DNA of 64,000 bases from Alphaproteobacteria bacterium (GCA_017539265.1 JAFYHG010000018.1:8779-72778), one strand, 5' to 3'. Shown: positions 38,382 to 59,166, numbered from the stretch's first letter. Program-made: numbers and translations. The notes: generated by a model from the sequence alone, not told the origin.

Positions 38382-38398
38382 TGGCGCGCCCGGCAGGA
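38382..38398. repeat. att copy 1 (17-bp duplicate of the tRNA-Arg 3' end)
   Basis: tggcgcgcccggcagga is identical to 43255-43271 and 59090-59106. Confidence 0.85.
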
Positions 38399-42911: not shown

Positions 42912-43254
42912 AACATCCCCCATAATAAAACACTTTTTGTATTGTAAACAATTTTTTTCTAAATGCAAGTGTAAAAAAACGAACATTTTTATTGTCTGCT
43001 GAACTAAATATATTACGAACGTTTTTTAATATTGTTATATAAAATGATCAAAAAGATCTACAAACCGGATATCAAAAAATGCACTAAAAGTTCACCATAA
43101 AGTTCCATAAAAATTGTCCTAAAATCAATTTAAAAATGAGGATAAGAAAAGTGTTTGTTTGTGTCCAAGGATTGTGTCCACCCCTTGTTGCCAAGCAAAA
43201 TTCCCAATTTCAGGCATAAAAAAAGCCTTGATAAACAAGGCATTATTTTAAAAG

Positions 43255-43271
43255 TGGCGCGCCCGGCAGGA
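43255..43271. repeat. att copy 2
   Basis: tggcgcgcccggcagga. Confidence 0.85.
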
Positions 43272-45336: not shown

Positions 45337-47076
45337 TTAACTAATCCGCAAATCTTTAATAGTTAATTCTTTGGTATTATTATCTTGGGGAAAATCTTTC
45401 CTGTCTTTTTCCCCAAAACCATATTCTTTTCGGCAATTTTCTAATTTGTTCCAGTCTTGCACACGATATGCATAAAGAGCAGATCGGGGATACATAATAC
45501 GCTTTCTTTGTCCAACAAAGGGGATTGATGTCTTGGTTCGTTTCTTTTTATCCGCCATCCTCTTTTTTGCTAACCAACTGATACTTTTTTCCAGATAACT
45601 TGCAGCAACTTTAGGTGACATCCATCCTGCATGAAGTGCATAACGGAGATGTGGTGATCCACTTGGTTTCCCTTTTCCTTCCAATCCCAAAGATGATATA
45701 ACGGATTGATAATTATGACTTAAAAGCATTTCCTTAAATACTTCTTTTTCTCGTTCTCTTTGGGGAGTGTTTTCATTAGTATACGCAATATTAGCGATTG
45801 TTGATTTATCACTTAAAGTGCATTCCTCAAAATCAAATCTCTTTAAGAAAGAAATATTCTCCAGAACAAGGTTACATCCCTCAAAAGAAGTCTGACTAAA
45901 GGAAACATCTCCCCCGAAAAGAGTGTTCCTTATAATAAAGTGCCGACTTCTTGGCGTTGCGTTAAACTTCAATTCTGAATTATTTAATAAAAAGGCACTA
46001 GATCTATTAAAAATACAGTTATGGATATAAAAACTTGTGTGAAATAAACTATTTCTAAAATCAAACTTACCATTTACAGTGCACTGCTCAAATGTTATAG
46101 CGTGCTTAATTTCCCTTGCGGGTGCAAAATCTTTCTCAAAGAAGCAATGATTAAAAGTGACTCTTGCTCTTATCGCATCATGGGGACAGACATAGTTAGC
46201 GGAAAATAGACAATCTTTGAAGAAAACACCTTCCATTGGATTAAATGCCCCATGAAAGCATATCAAATTCCAAAAGAATTCCTGCTCTTTTCTACCAAAT
46301 TCTACATTTTCTATTATAATAATAGAGCGACAATATTCGGAAGGAACTATTTTATATTGATGAGGTTTCTTGATTGTCTTGGTTGCCTGCGGGTGTTGTA
46401 GAAATACAATCTTATCTATTTCCTTTTTAATTTCAGGAGATTTGGTTTGTTCCGCCAGCATATAAAAAGGAGTACGGATTTCTTTCAAAAAGTCTGGATA
46501 CAAAACGGTTGGCAAGTGTTTTGTCAGTTGAACGGGTGAATTTCCAAACTTTTTGAACAGGTAAAGCAGTTCTCTTAAAAAATATCTGCCATTATTACCG
46601 ACTTTAGTTCTTATTCGTGCTAATGCTCCGACCATTCCTTTGGCATCTGCTAGGTCTTCAATATCTTGTGTTGTAATTTTGCCTCTTTTGTAATCATCTG
46701 TATCAATTTCAAAACAGGCAGAAAAGATATCTTGGAAGGTACGGATACATAACCTTAATGTTTGGTCAACACCTATTGGGTAATAATCGGGATGCGTAAA
46801 TGCATCAGGATATCCCTTCTCTGGTTGTTTTGTTTTAATGTATGTTTGTAAAATGTTTGGATAGACATCCGTCCAAAAATCTAAATTCAAAGATTTGAAC
46901 CGACCTTCTGGTCCATAGACCAGTTCTTCTTGGTAATCTTCATCTAAAAAAAAGTTTGGGCGTTCCAGTTTCATAAAAAACTCATATAAGTTGAAAAAGT
47001 TGGGGGGATTATACCACAAAATCTCCCAAAAGTCCAGAAGAACAAGAAATGTTAAAAAATCCATCTTTTTTAACAT
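45337..47076 (-). CDS. hypothetical protein: unknown N-domain + beta-helix/pentapeptide-like repeats + C-terminal excisionase-type HTH
   Basis: Periodic F.[NDQE][CST].F units across residues about 300-440. C-terminal MSPKVAASYLEKSISWLAKKR...IPFVGQRKRIMYPRSALYAY. The start is uncertain. Confidence 0.5.
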   Translation of the reverse strand: MLKKMDFLTFLVLLDFWEILWYNPPNFFNLYEFFMKLERPNFFLDEDYQEELVYGPEGRFKSLNLDFWTDVYPNILQTYIKTKQPEKGYPDAFTHPDYYPIGVDQTLRLCIRTFQDIFSACFEIDTDDYKRGKITTQDIEDLADAKGMVGALARIRTKVGNNGRYFLRELLYLFKKFGNSPVQLTKHLPTVLYPDFLKEIRTPFYMLAEQTKSPEIKKEIDKIVFLQHPQATKTIKKPHQYKIVPSEYCRSIIIIENVEFGRKEQEFFWNLICFHGAFNPMEGVFFKDCLFSANYVCPHDAIRARVTFNHCFFEKDFAPAREIKHAITFEQCTVNGKFDFRNSLFHTSFYIHNCIFNRSSAFLLNNSELKFNATPRSRHFIIRNTLFGGDVSFSQTSFEGCNLVLENISFLKRFDFEECTLSDKSTIANIAYTNENTPQREREKEVFKEMLLSHNYQSVISSLGLEGKGKPSGSPHLRYALHAGWMSPKVAASYLEKSISWLAKKRMADKKKRTKTSIPFVGQRKRIMYPRSALYAYRVQDWNKLENCRKEYGFGEKDRKDFPQDNNTKELTIKDLRIS

Positions 47077-47185
47077 TGCTTTTAAAGGATTTGAAAAATA
47101 AGGCTATTTTATTTTAACCTATATGCCCCAAATTATGAAATGTTTAATTTTAAAGAAAAAACTTATATTTTTTAACATTTAGGGC

Positions 47186-47257: not shown

Positions 47258-47839
47258 ATGGTTAATCAAGTTTTTATTGACGACAAGAAAATTAAAGACA
47301 TCTTAACTTACATTCAGGGGATGAGACATGCTGAAATGATACGGATGATGTTTTTATGTTCACTGAATGGCATGAGGTCTATAAATTTCGCCTATCTCCA
47401 AGTAGGTGATGTTTATACTCCCGACTTTAAGGTTAAGGATGTCATTTGTTTGGATGCGGATAAAAATAAAGGAAAGTTCGGGTGTTCGTATTATCTTAAC
47501 AGCCAAATGAAGAAAGAGTTTAAGGAGTATTTAGGGTATTTGAAGGCTAAAAATGAAGAGATTACGCCAGAAATGTATTTGTTTACCTCACAAAAGATGG
47601 GAAAACCTTTCAACCGTGTGTCAATTTCACGGATGTTCGCAACCGTTTACAAAAAGTTCAACATTGAAGGAGCATCACACTTGGGGCGACATTTGTTCGT
47701 GAGTCGGCTTATCAATGCTGGAACTAATATCTGTTTGGTTCAGAAACTCGCCAACCATCGCAACATTGGCACAACCCAACGTTATTTTAATTATAACGAG
47801 AAAATGCTCTCAAATGCTGTGGAAAATGTAGTTTTATAG
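47258..47839 (+). CDS. small tyrosine recombinase, FimB/FimE-like size (catalytic domain only)
   Basis: SD aaagga. 193 aa. HLGRHLFVSRL and LANHRNIGTTQRYF catalytic motifs. Confidence 0.75.
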   Translation: MVNQVFIDDKKIKDILTYIQGMRHAEMIRMMFLCSLNGMRSINFAYLQVGDVYTPDFKVKDVICLDADKNKGKFGCSYYLNSQMKKEFKEYLGYLKAKNEEITPEMYLFTSQKMGKPFNRVSISRMFATVYKKFNIEGASHLGRHLFVSRLINAGTNICLVQKLANHRNIGTTQRYFNYNEKMLSNAVENVVL

Positions 47840-47850
47840 CTGTGTGGTAG

Positions 47851-48113
47851 CCTAAAAGTGTATATAATTTTAAGTTATATCTCTTTTTCTTCTTCTTGAA
47901 TTAGAACATGTTCTAATCCACAGAGTATTTTATAGATTCCGAGGAATCTTGTTTGAACTAGTAATTTTTTTAGTTCTTTAAATTTAGCATGTATTTGTAT
48001 CAAAATTATTTTTTCTTTAAAAATTTGATTGGAATTTTTCATAGTAATATCCTTTCTTAAAAAAATAAGGGAACATTAAAGTCCCCATCTATTTCAACTC
48101 ATACACTTTTAGG
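47851..48113. repeat. 13-bp perfect inverted repeats flanking a 237-bp segment (candidate invertible element or MITE)
   Basis: cctaaaagtgtat at 47851-47863 and atacacttttagg at 48101-48113. Internal 18-bp palindrome attagaacatgttctaat at 47900-47917. Confidence 0.55.
47875..48042 (-). CDS. possible 55-aa ORF inside the IR-flanked segment
   Basis: aaaggatattactATG SD/start. MKNSNQIFKEKIILIQIHAKF... No homology judged. Confidence 0.3.
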   Translation of the reverse strand: MKNSNQIFKEKIILIQIHAKFKELKKLLVQTRFLGIYKILCGLEHVLIQEEEKEI

Positions 48114-48161: not shown

Positions 48162-49130
48162 TTATGGTGTTTTTTGTAATTTCTTAAATTGGTAAAATAC
48201 AGATGCCGGCGAAACACCGAAATAGTCGCCAATTTGTCTAAAACTCATTCCAGCTGTTTTCATTCGTACCAATTGTTTGCTATCCACTTTAAAGTCTTCC
48301 CAGCCTTTATTTTTAACTAAATCAAATTTTTTTATAACCCTGTAGATACTCGCTGGATGGGCATTTACCTTTTTTGCAATTTCTTTTCCCGAAACACCAG
48401 AAAAATACAATTTTTTTATAAGTTCTTCCTGCTTTCCCAACCGACTATTCAATTTAATTTGATCAGGTGTCCGGGTTAATCCCATTTTTTTAATTTCTTG
48501 TTCAAGAAGTTTATGAGAGCATCCTAATTTTTCTGCTATAAAGGAAATGGATCTTCCTTCAGCAAACATCTCTTTTATCTTATCCTTTTTAAGGTCTAAT
48601 TTCTTCAGTTTAGGTGCTTCTAAATTATGTAAAAGAATGAAATTATACAATGTTGAATAGCAAACATTATATTTTTGTGCAATGGCTTTTCTAGAGACAC
48701 CTTTTAATAATAGGTCTTGTATATCATCTTTATAGTGGTCTATTCTGGTCCAGTTATGGCGAGGTTCTGGTTTTAACCCCAATAATCTTTGTTCTTCTAA
48801 TGTTTTTTTGCCTTTTTTATAGACCTGTATACGATCAAGTGATGCGACATAAATACCGCTTTCTTTTTCAAATTTTATGAGTGTTCTGCGGCATATTTTC
48901 AATTTTTTACAGATATCTTCACGCGTTAGCCCTAATTTATAAAAATGTTTTATTTTTTCGGGATTAAGTTTTATTTCCCGAGTATGTGGTTCTCTTTTCC
49001 ACCCTAAATCTTTTAGATAATTACGAAGGGTAGAAAGACTTATATTCATACGATCCGCTATCCCGCCCAAGGAAAGGTCAGATTTGTAGAGTTCTTTTAA
49101 TTTGTCTATATCTAGTTCAATTTTGTTCAT
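48162..49130 (-). CDS. DNA-binding protein with six tandem helix-turn-helix modules
   Basis: Six units of the form [IL]K.[LM]Y..G.S...IA.K.......[LI]...[IL]KK..L, e.g. GVSGKEIAKKVNAHPASIYRVIKKF. Confidence 0.6.
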   Translation of the reverse strand: MNKIELDIDKLKELYKSDLSLGGIADRMNISLSTLRNYLKDLGWKREPHTREIKLNPEKIKHFYKLGLTREDICKKLKICRRTLIKFEKESGIYVASLDRIQVYKKGKKTLEEQRLLGLKPEPRHNWTRIDHYKDDIQDLLLKGVSRKAIAQKYNVCYSTLYNFILLHNLEAPKLKKLDLKKDKIKEMFAEGRSISFIAEKLGCSHKLLEQEIKKMGLTRTPDQIKLNSRLGKQEELIKKLYFSGVSGKEIAKKVNAHPASIYRVIKKFDLVKNKGWEDFKVDSKQLVRMKTAGMSFRQIGDYFGVSPASVFYQFKKLQKTP

Positions 49131-49146
49131 TTATGGGCGGATTTTC

Positions 49147-49174
49147 AAAAAAAGCGGAGTATTTCTACTCCGCT
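49147..49174 (-). terminator. Rho-independent terminator after the island adhesin
   Basis: On the minus strand, agcggagta-gaaa-tactccgct forms a 9-bp stem followed by ttttttt. Confidence 0.65.
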
Positions 49175-49234
49175 CACTTAAATTAACTAATAGGAAGGGA
49201 GACCGAGAAATCAGTCTCCCCGGAGTTCTTCGCA

Positions 49235-52200
49235 TTAGAATCCAAAAGTCACACCGACTTTGTAGGACACGCTGTCGTTGCCACCATAGGCAGCACCGGC
49301 GTTCAACAATGTCCGGTCGTTGAGATAATGGAATGCACCAACAGCCAAGGCTTGGTTGTTCTTGTATCCGCCCAAAGCCGCACTGACTTGCGTTTTGTGG
49401 ACATGATCCAGAGGAACAAGACCTGCCAAAGCGTTGTTAGCAGCTAACCCGTTTTCCATCTTGGTTTCTAACTTGTTGATACGGCGATCAACGCGGGCGA
49501 ATTCAGCACCCAAGTTATCATTCAAGTTGGTCAAGAGGTCAGAAATGCTTGACGGATCACCAACGGCTTGTGCACCAACAGCACCACCATTAGCTTGTTC
49601 TTTTCCTTTAAAGAACTTTAAGTTCTCTAAAGAAGACAAATCGCCAACAGTTTCATCAACGGCTTCAAAAGCAGATTCTGTAGCTGATTCTAACAATGCA
49701 ATTTGGTTATCTGTGTAAGTATTAGCATTGGCCTCAGCTGTATCAGCAGCACCATATGCATCATATGTATTAGCTGCAATAGCACCACTGATAGATGTAA
49801 TCTTACCATCTGTTTCAACGATGTTCAAAGACAAACCATCAGCACCTGCTGCTTGTGATACATTAGCATCTAAAGCATTAACTTTACCATCTGCGTAAGT
49901 CTTTGCATCAGCCAAAGCATTAGCAGCAGCACCATATGCATCATATGTATTAGCTGCAATAGCACCGCTGATAGCTGTAATCTTACCATCTGTTTGTGTA
50001 ATACTTAATGATAAGCCATCAGCACCGGCTGCTTGTGATACATTAGCATCCAAAGCATTAACTTTACCATCTGCGTAATTTTTGGCATTGGTTTCTGCTG
50101 TATTAGCATAACCTTTTGCTTGAGTATTCACATAAGTAACTGCTTCTGCAAGAGAACCAACCTGTTCGGTTGATACTTCTAAAGCGGTACGCATTGTATC
50201 CAGATTACCGACACGGCTATCAAGACCTTTGATTTGTCCATCTAAAACAATGTCAGCACCTGTCAATGTTGTTGCAGCTGTCAGGTAGTTTGTATCGGCG
50301 TATTCGTTGTTAACTGCATTCGAATTGGCCGAAGTAATACCCAATGTGTTATCAACCCATTGTTGTTTCTCGTTGAAGATAGCTTCTGCTTCTGTCCGTG
50401 TATAGACATCTGCGAGATTTGCTTTGTTAGCATCCAAAGCATCCAAAGCACCACGAACTGTTGTCGTTGAGCCTTCGCCTTGCTTTAACACAGAACCGTC
50501 TACAGCTTCTTCATCCGCATAGTTAACATCACCGATGGTGTCATTTGTGCCTTTGATTTGCGCATCCAAAACAATGTCAGCACCTGTCAAGGTTGTTGCA
50601 TCCGTCAGGTAGTTTGTGTCGGCGTATTCGTTGTTAACTGCATTCGCATTAGCCGAAGTAATACCCAATGTGTCATCAACCCATTGTTGTTTTTGTGCAA
50701 AGATAGCTTCTGCTTCGCTTCTGACACCGGCAACAGCCGTTGTAACAGCGGTATTAATCTTGCCATCAACAACTTTGCCCAATGAATCATCATAGGCCGC
50801 TACACTAGCCTCATGAGTAGCTGTATCAGTTGTGAAGTTAGTATTAGCTGTTTGCAATGATCCTTCCCAATTATTCAGGTTAGTTACTGTTGCTTGGTCA
50901 GTCGCCATGGTAGTAGCAATCTTATCCTTATTTGCAACGCTGTCATCATAGTAACCTTTTAATTCGGATTGTCTATTGGCCAGAGCCGTTACATCAGATT
51001 CGTAAGCATTAACTAGGTCTGCTTTGATACCTGCTGTAGTTGCATCATCTGCTGATACTGCTGTTCCATTTTTCTTTAAGACATAGCCATCTTCTGACGC
51101 TTCGATGGTATAATGGTCACCTGCAGTATTCGTCAATTCATAATTGGCAATATCAACACTTCCAGTTCCTGCGCTAGATGCAGTGATATCAAGTTTACCA
51201 CCTAAATCACTCGTCTGAACTGTATCTGTTAATTCTGCAACCGCTGTGCTACCTGCGACAGAAGTAGAATTACCATCTTTATCATATGTGACATATGTAT
51301 AATCATCGGCAGTCAGAGTACCACTATCATAGGACAGGTCGGCCACAGCAGAAATACCATCTACAGTAGCAGCTGCAGAAGTTGCAGTGTAATCTGCCGA
51401 TGTATAGGAAGCACCAGCGACTAAATCTGTGGGATTACCTTCTGGATCTGTAAAGCCATAATCCGCGGCATCCGGTGCATCACCAGGAGCGTTTGCAGAA
51501 ATGCTTGACACTTTATCAGACAATGTCTTCAAAGCAGTGTCCAAAGCGGTATCAGCACCCGTCAAGGTTGTTGCAGCTGTCAGGTAATTTGTTCCGGTGT
51601 ATTCGTCGTTAACTGCATTCGCATTAGCCGAAGTAATACCCAATGTGTTATCAACCCAGGTTTGCTTTTCGTTGAAGATAGCTTCTGCATTATCCCATAA
51701 TGTTCCCAAAGCGGTATCTGTATAGTTTTTCGCATAAGTCTTTGCATTTGCTTCAGCTGTATTCGCTTTCGTTGTTGCATCAGTAGCAGCGGCTGTAATC
51801 GCTTCGGATTTAGCAGTAGCAGCAGCACCATAAGCATCATATGTATTTGCAGCAATGCTACCAGAAATACCAGTAATCACACCATTTTCTTGAGTGATGC
51901 TCAAAGCCAATTGACCATTACCTGCGGCTGCAGCTTGAGTTTCTGTTGCATTCAAAGCATCAATTGCATCACCAACTGTTTTGCTCACAGAACCATCGCC
52001 TGTACCATTCAAGGTAGCAATAGCGCTCTCGTTTGTTGTGATTTTACCTACAAGAGTAGAAGTAATACCAGAGTTGACGGCAGCTAATTGTTCTGTTCCC
52101 AATTTTGCTTGGTATGTATTCGCCAAATCTAAAGCATCAATTGCATCACCAACTGTTTTGCTCACAGAACCATCGCCTGTACCATTCAAGGTAGCAATAG

Positions 52201-52726
52201 CATCTGCATTGGCTTTAACCTGTGTATCCAATAACTTATCTGCGCCAGCCATTGTTGTTGCGCCTGTCAGATAATTTGTACCGGTATACGCATTTGTTAC
52301 CCCAGTTGTTCCGGTGGATAAATCAACGCCCAATGTTTTCTGGGAAATGACACCACCTGTTAATTCTACAAAATCACCAACAGCAGTATTGACAACGGCA
52401 TAATCACCAGCATCTGAACTACCCGCTAGCAATTGTGCTAAAGCATCACGAGTGTATTTGGGGTGAGCCGCTGCAAAATCTGCATCAATGGTGTAATCTG
52501 TTCCACCAAGATTTGTAGTGTAGGTGTCTGTCCCCGTTGTGATGGCTGTATGAAAATTAGTTAAGTTTGTTGCAACTGAAGCAGTAGGGTCATAAGCCTC
52601 ATCTGCTGCCTTTGCACCTGTGGCAACGATTAAGCCCACTGCAAAGGCATTAAGCAGAAAACATTTCTTCAAAACACTACGGTATCTCGCAGAAAGTTCT
52701 CTGATTGTTGTTTTTGTATATTTCAT
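49235..52726 (-). CDS. trimeric autotransporter adhesin (YadA-like), island-borne
   Basis: Extended signal MKYTKTTIRELSARYRSVLKKCFLLNAFAVGLIVATGAKA. Long internal repeats. Anchor ...GAFHYLNDRTLLNAGAAYGGNDSVSYKVGVTFGF. Confidence 0.85.
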   Translation of the reverse strand: MKYTKTTIRELSARYRSVLKKCFLLNAFAVGLIVATGAKAADEAYDPTASVATNLTNFHTAITTGTDTYTTNLGGTDYTIDADFAAAHPKYTRDALAQLLAGSSDAGDYAVVNTAVGDFVELTGGVISQKTLGVDLSTGTTGVTNAYTGTNYLTGATTMAGADKLLDTQVKANADAIATLNGTGDGSVSKTVGDAIDALDLANTYQAKLGTEQLAAVNSGITSTLVGKITTNESAIATLNGTGDGSVSKTVGDAIDALNATETQAAAAGNGQLALSITQENGVITGISGSIAANTYDAYGAAATAKSEAITAAATDATTKANTAEANAKTYAKNYTDTALGTLWDNAEAIFNEKQTWVDNTLGITSANANAVNDEYTGTNYLTAATTLTGADTALDTALKTLSDKVSSISANAPGDAPDAADYGFTDPEGNPTDLVAGASYTSADYTATSAAATVDGISAVADLSYDSGTLTADDYTYVTYDKDGNSTSVAGSTAVAELTDTVQTSDLGGKLDITASSAGTGSVDIANYELTNTAGDHYTIEASEDGYVLKKNGTAVSADDATTAGIKADLVNAYESDVTALANRQSELKGYYDDSVANKDKIATTMATDQATVTNLNNWEGSLQTANTNFTTDTATHEASVAAYDDSLGKVVDGKINTAVTTAVAGVRSEAEAIFAQKQQWVDDTLGITSANANAVNNEYADTNYLTDATTLTGADIVLDAQIKGTNDTIGDVNYADEEAVDGSVLKQGEGSTTTVRGALDALDANKANLADVYTRTEAEAIFNEKQQWVDNTLGITSANSNAVNNEYADTNYLTAATTLTGADIVLDGQIKGLDSRVGNLDTMRTALEVSTEQVGSLAEAVTYVNTQAKGYANTAETNAKNYADGKVNALDANVSQAAGADGLSLSITQTDGKITAISGAIAANTYDAYGAAANALADAKTYADGKVNALDANVSQAAGADGLSLNIVETDGKITSISGAIAANTYDAYGAADTAEANANTYTDNQIALLESATESAFEAVDETVGDLSSLENLKFFKGKEQANGGAVGAQAVGDPSSISDLLTNLNDNLGAEFARVDRRINKLETKMENGLAANNALAGLVPLDHVHKTQVSAALGGYKNNQALAVGAFHYLNDRTLLNAGAAYGGNDSVSYKVGVTFGF

Positions 52727-53005
52727 TAACTATACCTTTCTTTTTAATATTAAAATTAAAGTTACGAGGAGTTCTCTTTTTCAAAACCCTCGTCCGTCAT
52801 CTTACACAAATGTTCCTTTATGAAATGATTTGAAGAAAAGTGATAAAAATAGCATACTTTTGTCTTATATATTATTGTATTTTCAATATGTTATATTCAA
52901 TTTTAATTTTTTTAAAAAAAATGTTAAAAAATGTTTGCAATTTAAGGAACTATTTTTTGCATATGAAATTATCGGCAATAAATAACTTTAACAAAAGGAT
53001 ACAAA

Positions 53006-53617
53006 ATGGCAACTATCGCATATATCAGGGTTAGCAGCGATAAACAAACCTGTTCTAACCAACACTTTACGATTAAAGAATACACAAAATCTCACAATAT
53101 CCACATTGATAAATGGGTTGAAGAGACTATTTCCAGCAAGAAACCTTTGGAAAAGCGGGAATTAGGCGTATTATTAAATAAAATGGATAAAGGCAGTTTA
53201 TTAATTGTAACGGAAATCAGCCGTCTTGCCCGTAATCTATACGAATTGGCGGGCATATTGCAAAATGCTATTAAGAACGACATTACTGTTATTAGTATCA
53301 AGGAAAACTATCAGTTCAAAAATGATATCCAGTCCAAAATTATGGCATATACTTTTGGGCTTGCCGCAGAAATTGAGCGTGATTTGATCTCAACCCGCAC
53401 TAAAATGTCATTGGATAAATTAAAAAAGCAAAATGTTAAATTAGGCAGACCATTCGGGGCGGAGACAAAATGTTTAAAACTATCCAAAAACCGCAAGAAA
53501 ATAAGGGAATTATTAGGAAAAGGTGTCAGTCAGGCCAAAATATCCAAAATCCTTGGCGTCCACCCGACAACCATGTGCCGGTTCTTGAAACGAGTGGATG
53601 TGTCAACCTGTTCCTGA
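53006..53617 (+). CDS. serine recombinase (resolvase/invertase family)
   Basis: AYIRVSSDKQ catalytic serine region, SRLARN motif, C-terminal HTH GVSQAKISKILGVHPTTMCRFLKR. Confidence 0.85.
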   Translation: MATIAYIRVSSDKQTCSNQHFTIKEYTKSHNIHIDKWVEETISSKKPLEKRELGVLLNKMDKGSLLIVTEISRLARNLYELAGILQNAIKNDITVISIKENYQFKNDIQSKIMAYTFGLAAEIERDLISTRTKMSLDKLKKQNVKLGRPFGAETKCLKLSKNRKKIRELLGKGVSQAKISKILGVHPTTMCRFLKRVDVSTCS

Positions 53618-53800: not shown

Positions 53801-53854
53801 GAACAAAAAACACCCAGATAGGCCTTGTGTTTATTGGCGTTTCTCAAATTGTAC

Positions 53855-54047
53855 CGAACATAACAGTCTCCGCTACCGAACATATGGGCACCGGGAGCGA
53901 ACATATGAGCATCGCTAGCGAACATAACAGTCTCCAAAATTGCCCAAACCGAACATATAAGCATCGCCCCCCTAAAAAACGAACATATCAACCTCTAGCG
54001 AATAATTTTTTTGTAAATCGGTGAAATCCATCATCGAGCGAATAAAT
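53855..54047. repeat. iteron-like direct repeats (CGAACATA core)
   Basis: Cores at 53855, 53877, 53898, 53919, 53950 and 53980, plus CGAATAA variants at 53999 and 54039. Spacing 21-22 or 30-31 bp. Confidence 0.6.
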
Positions 54048-54076: not shown

Positions 54077-54589
54077 ATGAGTAAAAGTAAATCAGATTTG
54101 TCCCTCACAAAGCGTGTGTTGTTGGACTTTGTAAAATTTAAGACCCAAAACGGGCATCAATTCTTTGCGAGCAACGAGTATATTGCCAAAGGTTTAGATC
54201 TAACCGAGAATACTGCCAAGACATTTGTTAATGACCTTATAAGAGAAGGATACCTTTATAAAGAGATAGATAAGAGAGGCATGAGAATTTTATCCCTAAC
54301 CGGTAAGGAATACAAACCATTGTTTGAAGATTTGAGGAACTTTGATAAGAAAGTACTTAAAGAGGACAGAGATAACTTTCAAAGGGATAACAAATATTTG
54401 AACCAACAGTTAGAACAGGAAACAGCATATAAGGAACAACTATTAAACGAAAATACAGATTTAGTCCTTTCCAATGCTGAACTAACCCATCGTGTTCAGG
54501 AACTGGAAAAGAGAGTTACTGCTTTGGAGAACATCTTTTATAAAAATGGAATGACAAAGGAACAACTGGAGGATTTATTGAATAAATAA
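54077..54589 (+). CDS. winged-helix + coiled-coil protein, candidate Rep/regulator for the adjacent iterons
   Basis: SD aggagg. N-terminal wHTH-like FASNEYIAKGLDLTENTAKTFVNDLIREGYLYK. C-terminal heptad-rich segment. Confidence 0.45.
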   Translation: MSKSKSDLSLTKRVLLDFVKFKTQNGHQFFASNEYIAKGLDLTENTAKTFVNDLIREGYLYKEIDKRGMRILSLTGKEYKPLFEDLRNFDKKVLKEDRDNFQRDNKYLNQQLEQETAYKEQLLNENTDLVLSNAELTHRVQELEKRVTALENIFYKNGMTKEQLEDLLNK

Positions 54590-58779: not shown

Positions 58780-59052
58780 AAGGGCAAAGGTGTTCAAAAT
58801 ACATTTTAGGCAACCGTCATGGGAATCATATTAGGGTGTTCAAGCGGTAAAAAATCCAAAAGGTGAAATGGTATCAATGTCATCAAAAAGTTCGTGGCAA
58901 AAAGTTTAGGATGAAAGGGGTTGATGAAAGTGTTTTTGAATAGCCAGATAATGCTGAAAACTAGCTGTAAAAAGCACATGTCACAGAAGTCTTTGTGTCC
59001 AAGGATTGTGGCCAACCCCTGTGGCCAAGCAAAATCACCCTGTTTCAGGCAC

Positions 59053-59076
59053 AAAAAAAGCCTTGATAAACAAGGC
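59053..59076 (-). terminator. element-supplied terminator downstream of tRNA-Arg
   Basis: On the minus strand, gccttg-tttat-caaggc followed by ttttttt. The same hairpin occurs at 43223-43240. Confidence 0.5.
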
Positions 59077-59089
59077 ATTATTCTAAAAG

Positions 59090-59106
59090 TGGCGCGCCCG
59101 GCAGGA
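59090..59106. repeat. att copy 3 (within the tRNA)
   Basis: tggcgcgcccggcagga corresponds to tRNA positions 60-76. Confidence 0.85.
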
Positions 59107-59166
59107 TTCGAACTTACAACCTTCTGATCCGTAGTCAGATGCTCTATCCAATTGAGCTACGGGCGC
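59090..59166 (-). tRNA. tRNA-Arg (anticodon ACG)
   Basis: Manual fold: acceptor GCGCCCG/CGGGCGC, D arm GCTC/GAGC, anticodon stem TCTGA/TCAGA with loop CTACGGA, T loop TTCGAAT, encoded CCA. The T stem GTAAG/CCTGC has one A-C mismatch and one G-U. Confidence 0.85.

Follow-up and report, generated by a model that had tools for sequence, protein, structure and literature searches.

A protein of six helix-turn-helix units associated with Mpi-family invertases and surface-structure loci in Alphaproteobacteria, a candidate regulator of phase variation

Invertible promoters are a main route of surface variation in gut bacteria, and Mpi is the best-known family of recombinases driving them. What selects the switches that flip, and how stable their states are, is largely an open question. 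In the stretch of DNA analysed here, 64,000 nucleotides (nt) of Alphaproteobacteria bacterium (GCA_017539265.1 JAFYHG010000018.1:8779-72778; referred to below as the window), a gene directly downstream of an adhesin gene encodes a protein of 322 amino acids (aa) that is made up of six helix-turn-helix (HTH) units. As judged from the sequences of the window and of orthologous loci, the family of this six-HTH protein is conserved, uncharacterised and consistently associated with an invertase and a surface locus; it is coupled genetically to Mpi-family serine DNA invertases and hix-like sites and embedded in surface-structure operons. The protein is probably a previously undescribed regulatory part of a phase-variation-type module. 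For Bacteroides it has been suggested in a preprint that Mpi may act with other regulatory proteins (bioRxiv 10.1101/2022.10.31.514637).

The closest characterised relatives, by sequence and by fold, are the archaeal proteins Cbp1 and Cbp2, which also consist of tandem imperfect repeats of a small three-helix HTH unit with short basic linkers and no other domain. The best match among solved structures was 2LVS on both counts (E 2.8e-9 by sequence), and the Cbp1 model NF040595 matched with E 1.6e-20 and 73.4 bits, which is below its equivalog cut-off of 140. In Cbp1, three HTH units are laid along one 24-bp repeat (PMC10883916). Cbp1 and Cbp2 are crenarchaeal and have two or three units, whereas the six-HTH protein is bacterial, has six, and its gene is associated with an invertase and with surface genes. 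No CRISPR-like (clustered regularly interspaced short palindromic repeat) array was found near its gene, between 38 and 60 kb, and an Rfam search of 43-59.5 kb returned a tRNA alone. Linked HTH units that read adjacent DNA segments are also found in the paired domain, the DNA-binding domain of the Tc3 transposase, Myb repeats and the double HTH of AraC, and the six-HTH protein would probably act in the manner of these readers and of Cbp1 and Cbp2. Tc3 (1u78) and AraC-type chains were among the fold matches, weakly (E above 0.08), but proteins of these types contain two or three units rather than six, and neither their families nor their contexts are related to those of the six-HTH protein.

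The open reading frame (ORF) runs from an ATG to a TAA codon (Table 1). It had been read in a preliminary description of the window as six consecutive HTH modules of the resolvase or IS type, and the six peptides quoted there are all present in the translation. Pfam HTH_7 (PF02796) matched six separate stretches with 77.6 bits against a gathering cut-off of 23.8 (E 7.8e-22), HTH_23 also matched six, and HTH_38 and HTH_28 five each; no domain other than HTH was detected in the Pfam scan. The NCBIfam matches were partial and confined to the HTH parts, the best being the Cbp1 model. That a catalytic or effector domain is missing, as had been proposed, agrees with these scans, in which HTH families alone matched. 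The serine recombinase catalytic domain PF00239 gave no match in either of them, and the six-HTH protein is therefore not a recombinase. Models of IS1, IS630, IS21 and IS3 covered the HTH parts alone and stayed far below their cut-offs, which does not place the protein among insertion sequence (IS) transposases. An AlphaFold2 model computed with six homologues as input consists of six three-helix bundles in a beads-on-a-string layout. Its mean predicted local distance difference test score of 77.6 and predicted template modelling score of 0.30 point to six confident bundles without a fixed mutual arrangement. Profile search and structure prediction, two of the checks advised in the preliminary description, both returned its six units; only the word consecutive has to be qualified, as a helical insert of 34 aa (aa 95-128) parts units 2 and 3.

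The genomic context was obtained for nine members of the family, and the flanks were sufficient in seven, i.e. the window and the loci denoted L005, L015, L011, L018, L026 and L023. In all seven an orthologous serine recombinase, 43-72% identical to that of the window, is encoded at most 5 kb from the six-HTH gene. The enzyme of the window does not appear to be a generic resolvase, the model of the Mpi 'master DNA invertase' family (NF009949) being matched over its whole length (positions 3-197 of 203). It scored 240.8 bits, compared with 270.6 in L018 and 310.9 in L026, of which the last passes the equivalog cut-off of 272. Its best match in the PDB, and its sole relative there by sequence, is the DNA invertase 4m6f. 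Two of the seven loci are situated in ordinary chromosome, L018 beside rplM/rpsI and L026 beside uvrC and sodC. As these core-chromosome contexts show, the association is not with the island as such. The link to recombination that had been proposed in the preliminary description gained support from the conserved neighbourhood of an Mpi-family invertase.

The relation to the invertase extends to the protein itself. Each of the six units can be aligned, in register, with the final 50 residues of the window invertase, including the K-L-x5-K-I segment that precedes helix 1; the local alignment score was 71 for unit 5 and 31-44 for the other units. A hidden Markov model (HMM) of the invertase DNA-binding domain (DBD) was built solely from the C-terminal 58 residues of six of the partner invertases. 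It gave six domain matches in each of 15 six-unit orthologues (seven in four of them), and many of these matches begin at the LKLSKN..KI arm. The best matches per protein had domain E values of ~1e-7 to 1e-12, calculated for a search space of one sequence, and some matches in some orthologues were much weaker. Each unit is thus homologous, preceding arm included, to the small C-terminal domain of serine invertases and resolvases (HTH_7; Hin, Gin, Mpi), and the assignment of the six modules to the resolvase or invertase type is upheld by Pfam, NCBIfam, AlphaFold2 and the invertase-DBD profile alike. The alignment in register and the HMM matches indicate that the six-HTH protein is the arm-plus-HTH DNA-binding domain of an invertase, multiplied into diverged copies. 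It differs from the invertases in lacking PF00239 and in carrying the domain six times in one chain, each copy having its own conserved recognition helix.

Close relatives were found by a word-indexed search of 5.8 billion clusters, which yielded six proteins of 37-100% identity, all from metagenome-assembled genomes (MAGs) of Alphaproteobacteria. A full HMMER scan of 1.84 billion representatives contained about 12 full-length colinear members, about ten of which had not been seen in the first search. The 15 six-unit orthologues originate from gut or rumen metagenomes of Alphaproteobacteria and are colinear unit for unit at 27-70% identity. In their alignment five units have an invariant turn glycine (G67, G144, G192, G245 and G294), and V156 and T160 of unit 3 do not vary either. 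The mean identity is alike over all six units (0.37-0.44) and lower in the 34-aa insert, which among the long segments is conserved least (mean pairwise identity 0.24). Each unit has a distinct recognition-helix signature, for example Y-N-V-C-x-x-T-V-Y-N-F in unit 3, the recognition helix of which (STLYNFI) we take to be Hin-like. The unit-specific signatures, together with the unit-for-unit alignment down to 27% identity, argue for an old six-unit array with units that are not interchangeable, and conservation of this kind in 15 orthologues puts the array far beyond chance. A composite, asymmetric DNA target seems a better fit than six identical repeats. The long composite site that had been envisaged in the preliminary description would likewise fit the position-specific conservation of the units and, by analogy, the Cbp1 units along one repeat. 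Searches with the protein in PADLOC, PHROGs and plasmid and phage collections gave generic HTH matches alone, and full-text literature searches on tandem or multiple HTH proteins gave no account of such a protein.

Conservation also bears on the idea that the gene is a decaying and functionless remnant of IS or recombinase DNA-binding domains, silent behind a terminator. HTH types typical of IS transposases, the strong terminator upstream and the absence of a Shine-Dalgarno (SD) sequence would suit such a remnant, but an open frame has been preserved in 15 lineages, with the units in the same order and the glycines unchanged at identities as low as 27%, and an identical protein sequence occurs in four contigs from different samples. 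We regard this explanation as hardly credible.

A surface locus is the setting of the gene in 8 of the 9 contexts. In three families it directly follows an autotransporter adhesin gene, of the YadA type in the window; the adhesins of L005 and L015 are of the classical PF03797 type. Five other families have glycan-synthesis genes directly downstream, and these are overlapped or abutted by the six-HTH gene, which in such loci is the operon leader. The glycan genes are of the types GT2/GT4 with ALGX, MBOAT and Hexapep in L011 and L018, DUF4422/GLF/GT8 in L026, GT2 in L023 and GDP-mannose dehydratase in L025. This organization can be compared with that of Bacteroides capsule loci, where Mpi and an invertible promoter are followed by UpxY/UpxZ and then by glycan genes (PMC4611039, PMC11685472). 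In L011, L018, L026 and L023 an Mpi-family invertase, a promoter region, with a clear hix-like inverted repeat in L026 and a marginal one in L011, and a putative regulator gene similarly precede the genes for surface glycans. The likeness is one of genomic position alone, UpxY being NusG-like, from another phylum and without relation in sequence or fold to the all-HTH protein, in which Pfam and NCBIfam searches gave no NusG or KOW match.

A protein in the position of UpxY could be a plain transcription factor for its own locus that activates transcription or increases its processivity, without acting on the invertase or its sites. Its place at the head of glycan operons in five families would be explained in this way, the nearest characterised relative, Cbp1, promotes the transcription of long arrays (PMC10883916), and inversion was seen in no contig. 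Left unexplained would be the presence of an invertase orthologue nearby in seven of seven families and the homology of the units, arm included, to the DNA-binding domain of that invertase. Moreover, in the adhesin loci the gene comes after the structural gene and behind a terminator, which is odd for an activator of that gene. Taken together, we consider an ordinary transcription factor rather unlikely, though still an explanation to be reckoned with.

The adhesin loci bring to mind another group of regulators. FljA, MrpJ and PapX are single-domain proteins that are encoded distally in phase-variable flagellin or fimbrial operons and have known motility or alternative-flagellin targets. The genes fljA and mrpJ take a distal position in their operons, and the resemblance consists in a regulator gene that follows a surface-structure gene with a recombinase beside the upstream region, as in the three adhesin-type families. 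By this comparison the six-HTH protein could be a trans-acting cross-regulator that is made when its surface locus is on and represses other surface or motility loci, in the manner of FljA, MrpJ/PapX or UpxZ, leaving one surface type per cell. In agreement with this the gene occupies the distal end of the adhesin transcription unit in three families, and in Bacteroides the Mpi-type invertases have several target loci (PMC4611039). On the other hand, a single copy of the gene was found per contig or MAG, a second switch with the same site was not found in the 64-kb window, and no target loci were identified. Six units conserved position by position also far exceed what such repressors need. A cross-regulator is accordingly judged unlikely.

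The DNA beside the invertase gene was compared among the loci. In the window it is a control region between the adhesin and invertase genes, and its hix-like dyad is the DNA block best conserved between the window and L005. In six of the seven control regions the density of dyads of the type AAASSWWSSTTT (AAA-SS-WW-SS-TTT), presumably the layout of Hin-type sites, exceeded that of the remaining locus by a factor of 4-25; none was present in L023. In L026 the sites AAACG-TT-CGTTT and AAACG-AA-CGTTT belong to a 33-nt inverted repeat (82% complementary) that encloses 96 nt with a TTGATT-17-TATGTT promoter, directly upstream of the six-HTH gene. Among 100 dinucleotide shuffles (mean 17.6, standard deviation 2.6) none attained the score of this repeat, 36. 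L005 has a 42-nt inverted pair around a promoter, the score of which was reached by 5 of 100 shuffles, and L011 has two dyads with opposite centres (TT/AA) about 124 bp apart (7 of 100 shuffles); both values are marginal. One of the L011 dyads lies within the spacer of a perfect TTGACT-17-TACAAT promoter. The crossover-to-crossover distances would be 132-156 bp. The core of the L026 site, AAACGTTCGT, resembles what we assume to be the inverted-repeat consensus of Mpi in Bacteroides, a consensus for which a text search of the literature gave no match. It is supported in part by a PSA primer containing GACGAACGT and by the title of a study by Patrick and colleagues from 2003. The L011 site we take to be similar to hixL. 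For the family's architecture a putative switch of the Mpi type is well supported by these comparisons.

Several observations argue against such a switch, or against a part of the six-HTH protein in it. All seven contigs of the window's lineage (L001-L004, L031-L033) are collinear with the window and the flipped orientation is absent from them. It is absent likewise from 17 contigs of four related families, the control regions of which are identical within each family and present in one orientation. In the window's control region the best inverted repeat does not exceed shuffled sequence (22 of 100 shuffles score as high), and the dyad and its putative partner have in common a core of 11-12 nt alone (GTTCCTT; score 18). 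In L015 and L018 a single dyad was present and an inverted pair was not found. No k-mer was common to the seven control regions beyond shuffles, and a DNA target was not identified in this way. The window invertase falls just under the Mpi cut-off given above. The orthologue of L027 follows two ParB_N/RepB genes and not surface genes; this divergent protein (P0017; L027 1439-4153) is translationally coupled to the two tandem genes, a misfit with the explanation that we favour below. Finally, the strong upstream terminator could equally mean that the six-HTH gene is hardly expressed in the window. It is possible that the Mpi-type switch has decayed or become fixed in the window's lineage. A scan of metagenome_contigs for the flipped junction of L005 gave no match, and was uninformative as the native left arm did not match either. 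A larger invertible segment of 5.8 kb, between 47066-47096 and 52901-52931, was considered and rejected, the match consisting mostly of A/T runs and being inverted in no contig.

The expression of the gene had been described as unclear because of a strong terminator 17 nt before its ATG and a missing SD sequence. Both features were found again. The T-run of the intrinsic terminator (stem and T7) ends 17 nt before the ATG, and an SD-like motif is absent from the 20 nt in front of this codon, whereas 16 of the 21 genes called around it have one. A GC-rich hairpin is present in the 71-104-nt gap between the adhesin and six-HTH genes of all three adhesin-type loci (window, L005 and L015). The single promoter-like match nearby would start transcription inside the six-HTH ORF. 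With about 16 nt between the end of the T-run and the ATG, and terminators on both sides of the gene, there is no room for a promoter of its own directly upstream. This bracketing, the lack of room for a promoter and the hairpin in the three adhesin loci suggest that its mRNA stems in all likelihood from transcripts that start at the adhesin promoter and read through, a plausible answer to the question of expression. We infer a single transcription unit of the adhesin and six-HTH genes, in which most transcripts would end after the adhesin gene and a minority would read through. Rare read-through together with the missing SD would result in a low dose of the regulator.

The explanation that we favour is that the six-HTH protein is a sequence-specific DNA-binding regulator that binds at or beside the invertase sites and affects either the inversion or the intervening promoter; we give it about an even chance. 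The promoter of the adhesin in the control region would drive transcription of the six-HTH gene, which transcripts would reach through partial read-through of the terminator, and the missing SD would keep translation weak and the dose low relative to the adhesin. The protein would be made solely when the surface operon is transcribed. By analogy with Cbp1, of which three units span a 24-bp repeat, six units could cover 40-50 bp. This length is close to that of the conserved block and of the 33-42-nt arms, compared with 26 bp for the plain site of an invertase dimer, and for this reason binding at or beside the invertase sites is favoured. The six non-equivalent units would probably be placed side by side, either on a single long composite site of some 40-50 bp or over several adjacent ones, which would coincide with or adjoin the sites recognized by the invertase. 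Bound in this way the protein may tune inversion or promoter activity, and the state of the surface locus would feed back on its switch or on related switches. A bolder version, which we put forward tentatively and think improbable, is that the catalytically dead array of DNA-binding domains covers the whole recombination site and its flanks and locks or licenses Mpi-type inversion according to the state of the switch.

Table 1. Features of the window that concern the six-HTH gene and its surroundings
Feature	Position	Strand	Basis or remark
HTH unit 6, aa 284-320	48171..48281	-	Pfam, AlphaFold2, alignment, invertase-DBD profile
HTH unit 5, aa 232-271	48318..48437	-	AlphaFold2, invertase-DBD profile; closest unit to the DNA-binding domain of the neighbouring invertase
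HTH unit 4, aa 178-219	48474..48599	-	AlphaFold2, alignment, invertase-DBD profile
HTH unit 3, aa 129-170	48621..48746	-	Best conserved unit; Pfam, AlphaFold2, alignment, invertase-DBD profile
Helical insert between units 2 and 3, aa 95-128	48747..48848	-	Predicted helices 98-116, 126-142 (AlphaFold2)
HTH unit 2, aa 55-94	48849..48968	-	Helices 57-65, 70-77, 81-91; invertase-DBD profile aa 52-90
HTH unit 1, aa 6-45	48996..49115	-	Pfam stretch 6-41; helices 8-16, 21-28, 32-42; invertase-DBD profile aa 9-44
Six-HTH gene	48162..49130	-	ORF; Pfam HTH_7/HTH_23 six times; 15 colinear orthologues; AlphaFold2
Terminator-like hairpin and T-run downstream of six-HTH gene	48059..48086	-	One of the two terminators enclosing the gene
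Intrinsic terminator/attenuator between adhesin and six-HTH gene	49147..49175	-	10-pair stem, 5 GC pairs, T7 run
First GC-rich hairpin after adhesin stop codon	49197..49221	-	RNA fold of 104-nt gap, -38.1 kcal/mol
Trimeric-autotransporter adhesin, 1163 aa, YadA anchor	49235..52726	-	Pfam YadA_anchor E 7.3e-12; upstream gene of presumed transcription unit
Control region adhesin/invertase, 279 bp, divergent promoters	52727..53005		Equivalents of 239-292 bp in orthologous loci
Candidate degenerate partner site AATGTTCCTTTAT	52809..52821		Inverted to dyad core, ~139 bp away; score 18, alone not significant
26-bp hix-like dyad TGCAATTTAAGG AA CTATTTTTTGCA	52936..52961		45-70 nt upstream of invertase ATG
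Small serine recombinase, 203 aa, Mpi 'master DNA invertase' family	53006..53617	+	NF009949, E 1.1e-71

In the window the serine recombinase gene is divergent from the others and is followed by the 279-bp control region, the adhesin gene, the six-HTH gene, a 55-aa ORF and a tyrosine recombinase gene (47258-47839; 193 aa, FimB/E-sized). These genes are located in a stretch of low GC content (34-37%, compared with 44-47% in the flanks) that ends at a tRNA-Arg gene (59090-59166). The 17-nt 3' end of this tRNA-Arg(acg) recurs at 43255-43271 and at 38382-38398, and a 115-nt repeat of 91% identity connects 43158-43271 and 58992-59106. Because of the repeated tRNA end two elements are taken to be integrated in tandem at tRNA-Arg, the six-HTH gene being part of the 15.8-kb one (43.27-59.09 kb). 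Two DUF6626 / DUF6538-integrase pairs are likewise found in L005.

Such a setting raises the question of mobile-element maintenance, in which the protein would serve the integrases of the island as an excision or directionality factor, take part in partition or centromere binding, or silence genes of the island. The island of the window indeed contains two tyrosine recombinases, a Rep-like gene and iterons, the L027 orthologue comes after ParB_N/RepB genes, and other long HTH arrays are found on mobilisable elements. Orthologues with the same invertase partner nevertheless exist outside islands (rplM/rpsI; uvrC/sodC), and the genes that recur beside them encode the invertase and surface structures, not integrases or replication functions. 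Nothing pointed to silencing, which had been suggested in the preliminary description. We think a maintenance function very unlikely.

Arrays of HTH units are common in general: the HMMER scan mentioned above gave 846 matches at E<=1e-10, many of which are proteins of 500-4460 aa with up to ten matched stretches. Very long, almost pure HTH proteins were seen in metagenomes (P0015, P0020, P0022, P0027, P0036 and P0119, also L028 and L029), and their function appears to be undescribed. One array, of 740 aa, shares its element with Mob_Pre, TnpV and a large serine recombinase.

The iterons of the island, six copies with the core CGAACATA at a spacing of 20-32 nt (53852-53996), lie upstream of a gene (54077-54589) for a protein of 170 aa that is HTH_36, DnaD-like and replication-initiator-like. 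This looks like a plasmid-type replication origin within the integrated island. The six iterons were also considered as the target of the six units and were rejected. Nothing comparable was found in L005, L011 and L015, the three loci examined, and the iterons are better explained by the Rep-like HTH_36 gene because they stand in front of it.

A second candidate switch is a 25-nt inverted repeat (47047-47071 / 47156-47180) of which the arms are 84% complementary and 84 nt apart. Its score of 30 was reached by 0 of 100 shuffles (21.3 +/- 3.1). It is situated in a 283-bp region between a gene for a 545-aa protein of unknown function and that of the 193-aa tyrosine recombinase, and it includes a palindrome, AATGTTAAAAAA-N6-TTTTTTAACATT, at 47048-47077. 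The 11-mer AATGTTAAAAA has exactly four copies in the 64 kb (47048, 47067, 47169 and 52920), all in the two intergenic regions next to recombinase genes, and the start context AAAGGATACAAAATG is common to both recombinase genes. The 11-mer and the start context could represent an operator, or else a promoter element, that the two regions have in common.

The adhesin gene of the window contains 180-nt tandem repeats (49709-50078) and several internal repeats of 135-200 nt with 86-90% identity; it is within this gene, and not at the control region, that metagenome assemblies of other samples break. In two glycan-type loci the six-HTH gene is overlapped by a small XRE-type HTH_3 gene, which precedes it in L023 (448-729) and follows it in L026 (5531-5836) and the product of which may be a second regulatory partner. 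In L005 (11376-12578) a serpin gene (PF00079) and ankyrin-repeat genes directly follow the six-HTH gene, and ankyrin-repeat genes are also present in the island of the window. This cargo looks directed at a host.

If the six-HTH protein is a local transcription factor only, the outcome would be a modest gain in annotation for an uncharacterised family. If it locks or licenses inversion, it would represent a hitherto undescribed type of protein accessory, dedicated to invertons. As a conserved partner that repeats the DNA-binding domain of the invertase six times, it would be a concrete and testable candidate for a co-factor of Mpi, outside the Bacteroidota. It would furthermore offer a natural example of a long, modular HTH reader in which the six units differ from one another and the target spans perhaps 40-50 bp, which would be relevant to the design of DNA recognition.

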